A program made the translations under genes and the position numbers. Of a stretch of 64,000 bases of DNA, positions 11,003-16,034 are shown piece by piece. Under the pieces are notes generated by a model, which saw only the letters and a list, made by a program, of their open reading frames with translations, had not been told where the DNA came from and ran no database searches. This stretch comes from a virus: IMG/VR virus record IMGVR_UViG_3300035661_000011, positions 32,001 to 96,000 of that record; one strand, 5' to 3'. How positions within the stretch are numbered: position 1 is the first letter of the stretch; every line of letters starts with the position of its first letter.

Positions 11003-11036
11003 GATACCACCTACCTATTAATAGGTAGGTGGTATC
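11003..11036. terminator. 34-bp perfect palindrome between convergent genes
   Basis: GATACCACCTACCTATT|AATAGGTAGGTGGTATC. Confidence 0.78.
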
Positions 11037-11044
11037 CACTACTG

Positions 11045-11497
11045 TTAAATCCCTAATTCTTTTGTTACACCATCTAATATATTGTTTTTTGTTTTAGCTT
11101 TTTCAATTGCTACTTCTCTAGCTACATCAATTAAATTATGTAGCTCATATATAGGTAGGTTTAATAATGTCGTTATAGATTCACCTGTCATTTCAGGTAT
11201 ACCCCATTTCATCATTTTTTTTGACACTAACCGTGAAATTGTATCTTTGTAGTAGTTTGTATTTTCAGAAAATGTAACAAGTGCAAAAGGTTTACTTTCT
11301 ACAATCAACCCGAGCCTTTCACTAACCATTTCTTTTATCAGCAATTGGTTTGTAATCGAATGCACGTTGTCTATACATAAGACATCTTCAAGTAGTGTAT
11401 CACCTTGTATACGCCGTATAGACCTATCACCGCGCATATTTATTACACACTGACTACCTAGCTCTGGTATCTCCAGAACATTAGGGTAGTAAAAAAA
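11045..11497 (-). CDS. Probable -1 frameshift extension (T-like part) of the upstream gene; alternatively an independent ORF from ATG 11437
   Basis: Frame is open from the T7 run at 11497 (FFYYPNVLEIPELGSQCVINMRGD...) to the stop at 11045. No SD before ATG 11437. SITTLLNLP motif resembles chaperone T parts. Confidence 0.65.
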   Translation of the reverse strand, partial: FFYYPNVLEIPELGSQCVINMRGDRSIRRIQGDTLLEDVLCIDNVHSITNQLLIKEMVSERLGLIVESKPFALVTFSENTNYYKDTISRLVSKKMMKWGIPEMTGESITTLLNLPIYELHNLIDVAREVAIEKAKTKNNILDGVTKELGI

Positions 11498-13182
11498 CTA
11501 TTCAGATTCACCGCTATTAGCTTATTAGCATCATCCTCATTTGAAGTTTGACCATACCCGCAACAAGGACATGGGAAGTTAGGAACTCCAGCAAATGTCA
11601 TAGTGTATTTTTCTTTTAGAGTTTTAGCTAACGTAGTTAATGTTTGTAACGAATCAGGATTTGCTGAATACGCTTCATTTAACTGTGTCAGTATAGCTTG
11701 CTTACTGTTGATGATTTTACGTCCAGTGGTGGGGTTCTGAGCGTCCTTAATTTCGATATACTGAATGTAAGGCGTGTACTTACCTAACGAAATATCTGTA
11801 GCGTATTTTAACGCTCTAGCTTTACGGAAATTACTATAACTACGTTCTGGCATATTAGCCGGTCTATTTTGGTCTATTGTTATAGCGATATGTGTTTCAA
11901 TACCTGCTACCCACTTGTTTGCTTCAGTCACATACTCGGATAGATTTGGAATTTTAAACTTAACAGTGTGTGTGGTATCAACTCCATATGAAGAGTTCTT
12001 AAGGAACACCTGTTCACTATTGAACTCCACATTAAACACATCTTCACGACGTTTTTGATAAGCTTTAACTTCATCAATTGTAACCGTCTTTTTACTCCAG
12101 TGTTCAACATCTTCTGCCGTTAATAATTCCATACGTGTATGTGTAATTAAACTGAAGTCTAATAACGAATCTGGTAAATATGTTCCATCTGGTCCTTTAG
12201 CGGACACTAGGTTGTAATCACAATCAGAATTAGAACATGGATGCCACACAGGGTAACCACGTGGATAAATAGCTGCTAATAACCCAGCTTTAATCTGTAA
12301 CATATCAGTTAACAGTATCAGTTCTTTCAGTCTGTTTTTATCAAACATACGTTTGTTAATTTCATCAACATTTGTACCTGTGACTTTATCAAGAAACATT
12401 TCAATGATTGTCATATTGATAACAACATCATCACCAGTATAAGATGCACCAGCTGTAGATTTACCGATAGCGTCATCTGACATAGATAGCATAGTGCAGA
12501 ACGTACTAAGTTCAGTTGTGGTGAACGGACTAATGATAAGTCGTACTCCACTAGCGAAGCAACAAACACCTGCACCAATTGATAAACCACTAGTTTGTAA
12601 CGCGTGATTTGTAGCGGTTACACCCTCCATGTTTTCTGGAGTATTTTTAGCACTCTGTGTTAAGTAGTTTACACCTAACTGACTACCAGTGTTTGTTGTC
12701 AATCGTTGTTTAGTGTGACCGTTTTCTTTAAACCATTCGTGGTAGTTACTACCCTCAGGAAAAGAGTTTTCACTAAGTACAACGTATTCTTGCATTAGCT
12801 GTGCAATTTTCTGATACTCGATATCTTCAGCGTAACGTTTAGGGTTTAATGCTTTTATCTTATTCATGTCAGACATGAATTGTTCAAAGATGTCGTTTAT
12901 GCGATTAATGGTATCTTCATCTTTAGCTAGAACGTGAGTAGTTTCAAATAGAATTTTATCACGAACTCCGTCAGTGGTATACGGGTTGATAATTGGTTCA
13001 TATGCCATCTTTGTGATAACAGGTTCGTCAGGTTTGTCATCAACTAAACCTTCTTCCTGCTCATAGATAACTTCTTCTGTGACATTAGATGAGTATTCTT
13101 GTTCATCAAGTAAAGTCTCTTCACCTTTTATACGAATGTTTCTGCCGCCGACTTTACCAGCGTTATCATTATGATCTGTCAT
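11458..13182 (-). CDS. phiKZ gp77-like protein; putative tail/baseplate assembly chaperone with Zn-binding Cys pairs
   Basis: GGAG RBS before MTDHND (13182). HPCSNSDC and FPCPCCG, KFKIPNL. C-terminal NSFFTTL over the slippery site. Confidence 0.7.
   Translation of the reverse strand: MTDHNDNAGKVGGRNIRIKGEETLLDEQEYSSNVTEEVIYEQEEGLVDDKPDEPVITKMAYEPIINPYTTDGVRDKILFETTHVLAKDEDTINRINDIFEQFMSDMNKIKALNPKRYAEDIEYQKIAQLMQEYVVLSENSFPEGSNYHEWFKENGHTKQRLTTNTGSQLGVNYLTQSAKNTPENMEGVTATNHALQTSGLSIGAGVCCFASGVRLIISPFTTTELSTFCTMLSMSDDAIGKSTAGASYTGDDVVINMTIIEMFLDKVTGTNVDEINKRMFDKNRLKELILLTDMLQIKAGLLAAIYPRGYPVWHPCSNSDCDYNLVSAKGPDGTYLPDSLLDFSLITHTRMELLTAEDVEHWSKKTVTIDEVKAYQKRREDVFNVEFNSEQVFLKNSSYGVDTTHTVKFKIPNLSEYVTEANKWVAGIETHIAITIDQNRPANMPERSYSNFRKARALKYATDISLGKYTPYIQYIEIKDAQNPTTGRKIINSKQAILTQLNEAYSANPDSLQTLTTLAKTLKEKYTMTFAGVPNFPCPCCGYGQTSNEDDANKLIAVNLNSFFTTLMFWRYQS
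11491..11497 (-). other. Slippery heptamer T TTT TTT (putative programmed -1 ribosomal frameshift)
   Basis: Minus strand AAT AGT TTT TTT ACT. The -1 frame has TAG directly before the run and is open after it. Confidence 0.6.
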
Positions 13183-13798
13183 CTGTATTCTCCACAGGTT
13201 GGTTTTGTTTAAGTTCAAGTTCTTTATAGTGTCTTTCAATTATAGACTGAGCGATATACATCGCTGCCTGCATGGGGGCTAATATTTTCAGAGTGTCATC
13301 AGATAATGAATCGAGGTCTGACATAGCGGCGTTATAGCGTAAGAAACTTTCAGCTGTAACTCGACCATGGTCATTGATTACTTTAATGTTAACTAATTTA
13401 TTACTGAAATACTGAATGTCACTTAAGTAAGTTCTAAGTGTAGAACTAGTTATTTCGGTTAACGCTAATACATCTGGTGGTAACGATGTGAAGTAATGTG
13501 CACTTCGTAATACATCTTGTACAATTGCGTTTTGTTTAGCGTAATCTCGTTTTAGGATATCCCAGTTATCACTGGATGCAACCATTTTTTTAGCTTGCTT
13601 ATGACTAATGTCTGGTGAACTACGTTTTGTTATTTTAATAGTAGCCCTTTCTAACCGTTCTCTTTTTAACGGACTCAGGTTGTTGATAGCCATAGTTGGG
13701 TCAACTTCACCGTATTTGGGTGTTACTTTCGGTAGATTTGACTCCTTGAATAATGTGGCTACATCTTCAATTGGCACTTCAGTTGGTGGTGTGTTCAT
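13169..13798 (-). CDS. Hypothetical helical protein (gp78-like position)
   Basis: 209-aa ORF, GGAG RBS, overlaps the next gene start. Confidence 0.75.
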   Translation of the reverse strand: MNTPPTEVPIEDVATLFKESNLPKVTPKYGEVDPTMAINNLSPLKRERLERATIKITKRSSPDISHKQAKKMVASSDNWDILKRDYAKQNAIVQDVLRSAHYFTSLPPDVLALTEITSSTLRTYLSDIQYFSNKLVNIKVINDHGRVTAESFLRYNAAMSDLDSLSDDTLKILAPMQAAMYIAQSIIERHYKELELKQNQPVENTDDRS

Positions 13799-13933
13799 AT
13801 TCTATATTCTCCGTTGTGGATATTATACGTTTAGTGTTTAGTACACTGAATTTTAGTAAACCATTTTATTTTATTTATAAATACGCTTATATATACGATG
13901 TGAGTATTTCTTTTTTAACACCTGGTGGTACAG

Positions 13934-14779
13934 ATGGATAGTGGCAATGAATTAATTTTACCGCATTTTGAAGGAATGCAAACCTTTCTTTCAGAATACA
14001 TTTTACAGCTCTTATATGAGACTGAACATATATTTACCGATGTGGATTACGATGGACACATTGATGACATAACGATGCTAGATAATACATATCCGTCGGC
14101 ATCTGGGTCAGAGCGGGCAAATATGACGATTAGTATTTATCGTGACAATATAGATTTGGTGTTAGCAAAACAAGGTGTATTTTTAGCAGACCCATTTGGT
14201 GCAAAACTATCGGATATAGTGGAGTTGTTTAAAGGTTGTACACTATTAGGTACACGGCCATTAAATGAGCTATTGGCATTCACAGTGGTGGATAGCGATG
14301 TCGTTGTTGAGGAGTATTTCGCTAATATAATTTCAGAACTTACTACGTTGGAACCACATCAGGTCGTAGAGCTTGTACAAAGTGTATCAGAATCTACGAT
14401 TGAATATTTACATCAAAACATTCCACTTCCACACGTTGAAGTTCATAGTGTTAATTTACACCGAGACAGATTTCTTAAACATTTACCTGATGTCGAACAT
14501 AGCGGTATAGTGGTTGACATGATAAAGTCGATTAACAACTTTGATTATAGTCCATTTGTTTTCATTCAAGCTATACGTAACCAGCTACTTGAACTTAATA
14601 AATACGAAATGGCAGATGAAATATACCTACTTATGTTAGGTAGTCACACAGTTACACCAGAGTTGCAAAAAACAACTACATCTGTTATAGACACCTTTGT
14701 TGAATCGTTAAGTGAAAAAATGGAACTAACTACCCTAGTTATTAATAAACTTAGAACTATGGCACACGACGATGAATAA
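13934..14779 (+). CDS. Hypothetical virion-associated protein (gp79-like position)
   Basis: 281-aa acidic ORF directly upstream of and overlapping the vRNAP subunit. Confidence 0.7.
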   Translation: MDSGNELILPHFEGMQTFLSEYILQLLYETEHIFTDVDYDGHIDDITMLDNTYPSASGSERANMTISIYRDNIDLVLAKQGVFLADPFGAKLSDIVELFKGCTLLGTRPLNELLAFTVVDSDVVVEEYFANIISELTTLEPHQVVELVQSVSESTIEYLHQNIPLPHVEVHSVNLHRDRFLKHLPDVEHSGIVVDMIKSINNFDYSPFVFIQAIRNQLLELNKYEMADEIYLLMLGSHTVTPELQKTTTSVIDTFVESLSEKMELTTLVINKLRTMAHDDE

Positions 14780-16034
14780 ACTCGACTTTTTTATATATTC
14801 TATAAACACAGAACTATATCTGTATCGTGGCTGGATAGAGAGTGTATATTTCATCTTAGTTGAAAATTCACCAGCTAGCCATTTACATGACCACGGCGTA
14901 CATTTAAAAGATAAAAAAATGTATGGTTTAGTCGATGGTAAAGAAACACAGATAACCGATTTTGTATTTGGGGAACCTTTATATAAACCGACAGAACAAC
15001 TCGTTATTAAAGCGCACCAGTTTAAATGCGTTAAACATGATACTATTACCAGTTACGGCATAGCGATTATAAACGCGTTTTACATAGAGTATCCATATAG
15101 TGGAAAGTGTGAATACATTAATCCTCCGCCTGGGAAATCTATTAAACCGTCACAGTTAAACGACGTAGCGCTACATATGCTACTCACTGATAAAGCCACA
15201 GTCGCTGAACATAAAAAGTTTGAAAACGCAGTGTGTTCTACAACTCCGTTGGTGGAGTGTTGTTTAGTTCCAGCTACAGAGAAATCGTTTATTAACAATA
15301 AACAAATTGCAGTTAGACGAGATGAATTATTAAAAGAGAACGAGGGACAATTAAATGATGGAGCAGTTATAGCAAATATACAGTCTGAACTAGAGAAATT
15401 GGATACTGAATATCTAAAGGGAGATCCATCAGAATTTTACTACAGTACAAAGAAAGCTAGGGCTAGTAGAACCCGTGTACATTTAATGTTCGGTGGAGAG
15501 CAAGATTACTTTGACTCCACAAATACAAATTTAGTTTCAAACTCTTTACAGGAGGGTATGCAGTTAAAAGATATACCTATGATGGCAAACTCTATTAGAG
15601 ATGCATCACGTAGACGAGCTGTAGCCACTGCTAATGGCGGTGCTAAAGTTAAAGAAACAACACGAGTTTTAGCTAACTACACCATTCTACCAAATGACTG
15701 TAAAACTAAACGTGGCATACTCAGGGAAATGAATGCTGACAACTACACACTTTACATCGGTAGGTATTTGGTAGGAGGTAACACACCGCTGAGTGAATTA
15801 GATTTACACAAGTTAATTGGGAAAAAAATACATTTACGCTCTAATCAGTGGTGTGATTCACCAGGTAATACTGTGTGCCCTATTTGCACGGGTGATAAAA
15901 TCTATGCCACTAAACTAGGTGTGTCCGCTTTAGCTAATACACTTACCAGTACACTGATGTTAATTGATATGTCAGCTATGCATACATCTGGATTAAAAAC
16001 ATCCAAATACAATTTCACCACAAGAATAACGTAG
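14772..16034 (+). CDS. Virion RNA polymerase beta' subunit fragment (phiKZ gp80-like)
   Basis: NSLQEG, TANGGAKVKE..R, DCKT, LRS..WC..VCPICTG Zn site, MSAMH trigger-loop-like motif. Confidence 0.88.
   Translation: MNKLDFFIYSINTELYLYRGWIESVYFILVENSPASHLHDHGVHLKDKKMYGLVDGKETQITDFVFGEPLYKPTEQLVIKAHQFKCVKHDTITSYGIAIINAFYIEYPYSGKCEYINPPPGKSIKPSQLNDVALHMLLTDKATVAEHKKFENAVCSTTPLVECCLVPATEKSFINNKQIAVRRDELLKENEGQLNDGAVIANIQSELEKLDTEYLKGDPSEFYYSTKKARASRTRVHLMFGGEQDYFDSTNTNLVSNSLQEGMQLKDIPMMANSIRDASRRRAVATANGGAKVKETTRVLANYTILPNDCKTKRGILREMNADNYTLYIGRYLVGGNTPLSELDLHKLIGKKIHLRSNQWCDSPGNTVCPICTGDKIYATKLGVSALANTLTSTLMLIDMSAMHTSGLKTSKYNFTTRIT

Follow-up and report, generated by a model that had tools for sequence, protein, structure and literature searches.

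A conserved, very probable -1 frameshift in the phiKZ gp77-like core gene of nucleus-forming jumbo phages and its likely link to the T4 hub chaperones gp26 and gp51

The phiKZ gp77-like gene on the minus strand of a 64,000-nucleotide stretch of viral DNA (the window, positions 32001-96000 of the 154,505-base IMG/VR record IMGVR_UViG_3300035661_000011, a fragment with a completeness estimate of 54%) very probably encodes two proteins, a short form of 574 amino acids (aa) and a long form of 712 aa, the latter produced by a -1 frameshift near the 3' end of the gene. A hidden -1 frameshift joining this gene to the open reading frame (ORF) downstream of it had been proposed in a first-pass annotation made from the DNA letters without database searches, and the proposal is strongly supported by the comparison of homologous loci, 22 of 22 of which carry the same arrangement. 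The two forms are further proposed to be a pair of assembly chaperones of the type of gp26 and gp51 of the T4 baseplate hub. The reading as a whole, frameshift together with chaperone pair, is assigned a probability of about 0.8.

The short form is encoded at 11458..13182 of the window (minus strand, ATG at 13182, TAG at 11460-11458). The proposed site of tandem -1 slippage is a T TTT TTT heptamer at 11491..11497 (minus strand), which lies on the codons of Phe563 and Phe564, 12 codons ahead of the stop. The 0-frame codons around the heptamer are AAT AGT TTT TTT ACT ACC CTA ATG TTC TGG AGA TAC CAG AGC TAG, and the C-terminal translation of the gene is NSFFTTLMFWRYQS, followed by the stop. Direct reading of the minus strand confirmed the heptamer at 11497-11491, the presence in the -1 frame of a TAG (11500-11498) directly before the T-run, and the open frame after it; the first-pass description of the gene as ending in NSFFT was right about the motif and loose about the ending, as 10 codons remain after the second Phe. 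From the T-run, 150 codons are open in the -1 frame before a stop (11045..11497, minus strand). This extension is read from the T-run as FFYYPNVLEIPELGSQCVINMRGD...; the -1 frame after the TAG reads FFYYPNVLEIPELGSQCVINM..., continues through the 130-aa ORF (ATG at 11437-11435) and ends at the TAA at 11047-11045. The trans-frame junction of the long form would read ...AVNLNSFF-YYPNVLEIPELGSQ... in the window phage, and the sizes of 574 and about 712 aa given earlier were correct, the long form being 562 + 150 = 712 aa. The two frames overlap as a dual-coding segment at 11458..11490 (minus strand), read as TTLMFWRYQS and a stop in the 0-frame and as YYPNVLEIPEL in the -1 frame. No promoter-like or terminator-like site separates the 574-aa gene from the 130-aa ORF, and the ATG at 11437 has no GGAG-like or other Shine-Dalgarno (SD) motif 5-12 nucleotides (nt) upstream, again as the first-pass annotation had it. 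The 574-aa and 130-aa products were called in identical form on 5 and 6 contigs.

The window protein matched phrog_4585, a family of unknown function, at E 3.8e-35, and had no Pfam match. Notes in GenBank equate the homologs PhiPA3 gp074, phiKZ gp077, 201phi2-1 gp136 and EL gp47. In a published survey of core genes, phiKZ gp077, Goslar gp081 and RAY gp267 are listed together as core gene cg18, a 'hypothetical protein', which the table does not flag as exclusive to phages encoding chimallin (Table S3 in Prichard et al. 2023, PMC10299810). The downstream ORF is absent from the published core list, and the earlier statement that two core genes are joined holds for the upstream gene only. The proteins called 'gp77' in papers on the Goslar structure, on transposon sequencing (Tn-seq) of PCH45 and on PhiPA3 ChmC are other proteins.

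DNA nearly identical to the window gene was not found in the phage collection. A translated search (tblastn) returned homologs at ~20-25% identity in jumbo phages of Vibrio, Xanthomonas, Salmonella, Serratia, Klebsiella, Erwinia and Pectobacterium and in Halocynthia phage JM-2012, a second tblastn query returned 182 records, including phiKZ-like, PhiPA3, RAY, Ralstonia and Bacillus phages, and an exhaustive profile-free search yielded 558 representative homologs at E<=1e-3. The 22 loci chosen for comparison were the window, 13 annotated phage loci and 8 metagenome or IMG/VR loci, which span jumbo phages of Vibrio, Xanthomonas, Salmonella, Serratia, Pseudomonas, Erwinia and Bacillus as well as metagenomes at 15-25% protein identity, a divergence at which synonymous sites should be saturated.

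The alignment of homologs that had been suggested as a check was carried out on these loci. N TTT TTN was found on the homologous Phe-Phe codons, at the same position and in the same phase, in 22/22, as T TTT TTT (15 loci), T TTT TTC (4), T TTT TTA (1) or G TTT TTT (2), in T-runs of 6-8 T. At every locus the next ORF lies in the -1 frame, which is open from the T-run for 148-178 codons at the 21 complete loci and for 132 at the remaining one (L018), where the contig ends. Findings that had been named beforehand as contrary evidence, namely TTC codons in place of the run or a downstream gene in some other frame, were not encountered: the first Phe codon is TTT, and the downstream frame is -1, in all 22. 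The 0-frame continues for 12-39 codons past the slip site. The codon before the T-run specifies S, Y, I, A, L, G, T or V, yet its third base is T in 20 of the 22 loci, and TTT is kept at the slip site even in genomes of 57-63% guanine plus cytosine that favour TTC. Calculated from the codon usage of each gene over 20 loci, the chance of T|TTT at this site is ~1e-17, a figure that assumes independence of the loci and so overstates the significance. Judged from the aligned genes, the slip-site architecture is far beyond chance.

The length of the 0-frame tail is unusual in one group, the Moabitevirus clade (Serratia phages Totoro and 2050HW), where it is 39 aa, as against 12-22 aa elsewhere, and the overlap is ~115 nt (L006:3643-3763 in Totoro, L007:3560-3680 in 2050HW).

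The downstream frame appears to be coding from the slip site itself. In 21 loci the extensions can be aligned from end to end, even through stretches free of start codons, and conserved -1 coding runs through DNA annotated as 'intergenic' over 131 nt in Vibrio phage sm033, 77 nt in pir03 and 218 nt in the phiKZ-like phage OMKO1 (L010). In the closely related locus L014 (IMG/VR UViG 3300037010_000424, protein 81% identical), the ATG of the window ORF is replaced by GTT (L014:4240-4250), and just a 94-aa remnant farther downstream was called by the gene caller. The window and L014 differ at 3 positions in ~95 nt around the slip site and are far less identical in the flanks, the pattern expected of dual coding. 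At other loci the extension ORF has been assigned starts that fall arbitrarily within the upstream gene, so that the two overlap by 18-136 nt (RAY gp266, L011:3916-4464; also L015, L017, L019 and L020). A tblastn search with the 130-aa ORF alone found no match because the extension is too divergent, and its homology was recovered through synteny and trans-frame reading; the extension matched phrog_12109 at E 0.0024.

The end of the short form is conserved as well. The 0-frame tail keeps the pattern FF[TI][TIL]L... across the loci, and in the AlphaFold (AF2) model of the 574-aa protein (predicted local distance difference test score, pLDDT, 87.6; predicted template modelling score, pTM, 0.86) residues 560-573 form a C-terminal helix at pLDDT ~90. 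In-frame fusions numbered 0 among the best 150 of the 558 representatives, and a search for the extension profile among longer proteins found no fused form, which is weak evidence. The frames have been kept apart over wide divergence, which argues for selection for both products. Taken over all loci, a real two-product -1 frameshift at the gp77 locus is highly probable on this comparative evidence. None of the homologous GenBank loci examined carries an annotated joined coding sequence.

In the proposed mechanism, tRNA-Phe in the P and A sites would slip back by one base, in tandem, on U UUU UUY. The majority of ribosomes would stay in frame and reach the stop 12 codons on, releasing the 574-aa form, the last 14 residues of which are predicted to be helical. 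The slipped fraction would read 148 further codons to give the 712-aa form, in which a helical 150-aa domain would replace the C-terminal helix. The heptamer, its phase and its conservation are plain in the alignments; the slippage itself and the ratio of the forms are inferred.

The connection to the T4 hub chaperones was drawn from predicted structures, motif order and the slip site. The comparison of predicted structures with tail chaperones and T4 gp26/gp51, suggested in the first-pass annotation, did match predicted folds of T4-type hub assembly proteins, and no tail assembly chaperone (TAC) chain was among the PDB matches listed. Against the PDB, Foldseek found nothing with the 574-aa model and the VIA wide search found only a helical hairpin at Z<=6.3; a solved structure of the gp26/gp51 family (PF12322, T4_baseplate) did not turn up. 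A Foldseek search of BFVD returned, after the jumbo-phage orthologs, at least 10 proteins whose annotation reads T4-type hub assembly protein, chaperone or subunit (at E 9e-4 to 6e-2; template modelling score, normalized to the target, 0.3-0.54), a comparison of predicted with predicted structures. In the ESM Atlas, a look-alike cluster was found at a score of 0.90, 24% of whose members carry PF12322. Two GenBank records give homologs the label 'putative baseplate hub assembly protein' on the strength of a weak match to gp26. The residues C316, C321, C538 and C541 are, besides M1, the only invariant ones among 144 homologs; they form two pairs, C316-x4-C321 (12220..12237, minus strand) and C538-P-x-C541 (11560..11571, minus strand, 22 residues ahead of the slip site), and suggest a putative Cys4 zinc site. 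The landmarks of T4 gp26, CxC at 82/84, CPEC at 187-190 and a C-terminal FFELL, stand in the same order, Cys pair, CPxC, FF.

T4 gene 26 itself has TTC TTT at the FF codons with a TGA in the -1 frame and therefore cannot shift. A frameshift from T4 gp26 into gp25 was considered and rejected on the same two features. Seven true gp26 homologs outside the T-even group (S-PM2, MED4-213, Stenotrophomonas phage YB07, Rhizobium phages RL2RES and LG08, Aeromonas phage CC2 and Cronobacter phage LPCS28) were inspected at the same place. In all seven, [S/D] TTT TTC/G, that is T TTT TTC/G, lies on the C-terminal FF, with 1-2 codons left to the stop, and from the run onward the -1 frame has no stop over a 58-64-aa extension that includes a small ORF annotated as 'gp51', 'hub assembly catalyst' or hypothetical (L028:966-1157 in LG08, L029:966-1142 in LPCS28, L030:1098-1283 in S-PM2, L031:1131-1322 in MED4-213, L032:1143-1316 in YB07, L033:1125-1310 in RL2RES and L034:1164-1337 in CC2). 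The GenBank records of these seven loci carry no frameshift annotation. A hidden Markov model (HMM) built from the seven extensions matched residues 200-245 of T4 gp51, after its 'VF', at 26 bits (E 3e-10) and did not match T4 gp26, which makes gp26 the counterpart of the short form, while gp51 looks like a long form encoded in frame. The C-terminal subdomain of the jumbo extension (...ESITTLLNLPIYELHNLIDVAREVAIEKAK) and the T4-like extensions (...YSLAEIENMMPWERAVYVSLL...) can be set in a consistent register, though without significance. Homology of gp77 to gp26/gp51 is likely, mostly on account of the shared idiosyncratic slip site.

The model of the jumbo extension (pLDDT 69.8) gave MerR-like and ParB-like helices in the fold search, at Z<=5 and without significance, and jumbo-phage orthologs only in BFVD. 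The idea of a gp25-like extension, suggested by the T4 gene order 26-25, was dropped on these results.

Under the proposed model, the shared gp77 body would be a Cys4, probably zinc-binding, distant and enlarged relative of the T4 baseplate-hub assembly chaperones, with gp26 as the equivalent of the short form and gp51 as that of the long form. If the analogy with lambda G/GT applies, the common body would hold one assembly substrate, the hub or the tape-measure protein, and the extension, made in small amounts, would tether that substrate to a second partner. Such a model is reasonable for the jumbo pair because both T4 proteins appear in the literature as hub assembly chaperones and gp51 does not occur in the particle; gp51 is also essential, and its function is given as unknown (Leiman et al. 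2010, PMC3004832). A gp26/gp51-type chaperone function of gp77 is favoured, though less firmly than the homology, and a G/GT-like division of labour between two isoforms is plausible as an analogy. The earlier suggestion of a tail or baseplate chaperone is backed, indirectly, by predicted folds, the PF12322 look-alike cluster, motif order and the slip site in true gp26 genes, and fails to find backing in sequence profiles. We incline slightly towards a wider grouping, a superfamily of hub/tail assembly chaperones with one ancient -1 frameshift at the C-terminal FF that would take in T4-like gp26 with its start-less 'gp51' and gp77/cg18 of all nucleus-forming jumbo phages, T4 itself being derived through a 26/51 duplication.

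Several results weigh against the reading set out above, in its mechanism as well as in its function. No common downstream RNA structure was detected over the 22 loci (mean z -0.6), nor was a family-wide upstream SD-like element, and the frameshift may be of low efficiency, like that of lambda GT, or have a stimulator of an unrecognised kind. The window does have a candidate stem-loop directly 3' of the heptamer (11453..11490, minus strand; ACUACC...GGUAGU enclosing UUCUGG-AGAUA-CCAGAG), with z -1.7 for 98 nt and z -3.35 for 70 nt; its outer stem is disrupted in L014, a small UGG-N5-CCA hairpin is retained in the clade of the window, and its role as a frameshift stimulator is uncertain. On the side of function, alignment of the gp77 profile (hhalign) with gp26, gp51 and an 8-sequence gp26/51 profile reached probabilities of 22-28% and covered the CPxC motif only. 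PF12322 did not match the window protein at E<=0.1 or the six-frame translation of its own genome, and matched 1 of 77 homologs (E 0.0087). Comparison of the jumbo with the T4-like extensions by hmmsearch and hhalign was non-significant (E ~0.009). Finally, gp77 adjoins virion-RNA-polymerase genes rather than tail genes, in a context of transcription and replication.

Transcriptional slippage, in which a phage or host RNA polymerase would add one U on the T-run and give the same two isoforms, gains from the failure to find a conserved ribosomal stimulator, from a homopolymer of 6-8 T on which one extra U is exactly a -1 reading, and from the use by these phages of their own unusual multisubunit RNA polymerases, one of which is encoded next door. 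It is nonetheless improbable: runs of six T are the norm among T4-like genes and present in several jumbo loci, and such runs are shorter than those on which bacterial polymerases usually stutter efficiently; the run, moreover, always spans both codons in X XXY YYZ phase, and P2 E/E+E' reportedly uses T TTT TTG ribosomally. Two ordinary adjacent genes, the second starting at the ATG at 11437 and the T-run reflecting merely a requirement for Phe-Phe, are what GenBank and gene callers annotate everywhere; the ATG is present in the window, and FF is conserved in the protein even in the non-shifting T4 gp26. Against this very improbable alternative stand the lack of an SD motif at that ATG and its replacement by GTT in L014, the conserved extension upstream of any start codon in many loci, a -1 frame that in 22/22 loci opens right at the run, and the synonymous-site pressure for T|TTT, while in T4, where no shift takes place, the codons are TTC TTT and a TGA closes the -1 frame. 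Some sequencing chemistries are error-prone on homopolymers, and an error of this kind could split a single 712-aa ORF; but the same split is seen in 22 independent genomes or metagenomes with runs of 6, 7 or 8 T, identical products come from 5 and 6 contigs, conservation and a predicted helix mark the 0-frame tail, and no fusion occurs among the best 150 representatives, and this persistent separation of the frames reduces the chance of a homopolymer error to practically nothing.

A different kind of alternative accepts the frameshift and takes the protein to be something other than a tail or baseplate chaperone, for example a factor in packaging or assembly of the virion RNA polymerase or in head completion, its likeness to gp26 reflecting a shared small zinc scaffold. 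Synteny speaks for it. In the jumbo phages examined a constant order was observed, with gp80-like and gp79-like genes divergent upstream, followed by a small gp78-like gene, gp77 and the extension ORF; in the window these are a gp80-like beta-type subunit of the virion RNA polymerase (14772-16034, plus strand, phrog_2962), the gp79-like gene (13925-14779, plus strand, phrog_5038) and the gp78-like gene (13169-13798, minus strand, no family match). No tail genes lie nearby and none was detected in the 154-kb record, where neither the sheath (PF17482) nor the T4 gp19-type tube (PF06841) had a match; the assembly probably lacks the tail module. The non-significant profile comparisons with gp26/gp51 and the weak, likewise non-significant resemblance of the extension to MerR-type helical DNA-binding domains (Z ~5) point the same way. 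The alternative is unlikely, though it carries more weight than those concerning the mechanism: the fold and language-model leads both go to PF12322 proteins, and a -1 slip at a C-terminal FF after CPxC, common to gp77 and to true gp26 genes, would be hard to arrive at by convergence. The frameshifted gp26/gp51-type chaperone pair is kept as the preferred reading.

A -1 frameshift that yields two chaperone isoforms is a known mechanism. The new element here is its proposed occurrence in a core gene of nucleus-forming phages that lacks annotation, together with the link to the two hub chaperones of T4; no description of a frameshift in gp77 or gp26/gp51 was found in the full-text literature searched, which leaves many subscription papers outside. 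If the reading is true, every genome record of the gp77 family misannotates the locus, as two genes or as a gene and an 'intergenic gap', and an extra protein of ~650-800 aa is predicted, which would be a target for proteomics and Tn-seq. It would provide a testable assembly-chaperone function for cg18/gp77, a core gene still 'hypothetical' (PMC10299810), offer a simple evolutionary account of the two paralogous hub chaperones of T4, and extend the rule of long-tailed phages, a chaperone pair made through a -1 shift, to lineages thought to be without one. The superfamily, if it holds, would be the long-missing counterpart of G/GT in two large myovirus lineages.

Beyond the extension, 8 nt past its stop, lies a terminator-like hairpin, a 34-nt perfect palindrome (11003..11036, minus strand), which probably marks the end of the transcription unit and acts as a bidirectional terminator. 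It sits between the minus-strand unit and a convergent plus-strand array of small paralogous ORFs, which also belongs to the neighbourhood of gp77 in the window.

Among known systems, the nearest in protein features are T4 gp26 (208 aa) and gp51 (249 aa), which like gp77 have two Cys pairs followed by a C-terminal FFxLL and resemble it in predicted fold. The gp77 short form ends just past FF, as gp26 does, and the long form adds a helical extension, as gp51 does. In T4 the two forms come from paralogous genes, whereas the jumbo locus would be one gene; the jumbo protein is also larger by a factor of 2.5-3, carries 215 inserted residues between its two Cys pairs, and its extension is 150 aa as against ~50 aa. 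The gp26 genes of T4-like phages (cyanophages, rhizobiophages and others) share with the jumbo locus the slip at the C-terminal FF and the downstream ORF in a -1 frame open from the run. They differ in a slip that falls only 1-2 codons short of the stop, in an extension of 58-64 aa, and in their place in the tail/baseplate module beside tube-initiator genes.

The -1 frameshift of lambda gpG/gpGT is reportedly conserved as a feature of tail assembly chaperone genes. Lambda G/GT and P2 E/E+E' resemble the gp77 locus in a -1 slip near the 3' end of the upstream gene, in a shared N-terminal body and, probably, in a long form that is the minor product, and the T TTT TTG heptamer of P2 is the same as that of RL2RES. 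The likeness to lambda claimed in the first-pass annotation is sound as regards two products made through a -1 shift near the 3' end. The gp77 protein, some four times larger (a body of 562 aa against ~90-140 aa), is not encoded between tube and tape-measure genes and showed no TAC family or fold, with no Pfam match and no TAC chain among the PDB fold matches listed; position, size and the fold matches listed set the gp77 locus apart from the lambda G/GT family. Escherichia coli dnaX (tau/gamma) offers a further parallel in its homopolymeric X XXX XXZ heptamer, read in bacterial translation to give two isoforms. There the shift truncates the protein and is driven from both sides, by a strong SD-like element upstream of the site and a stem-loop downstream of it, neither of which is seen to be conserved at gp77, where the shift would instead lengthen the product by a conserved domain.

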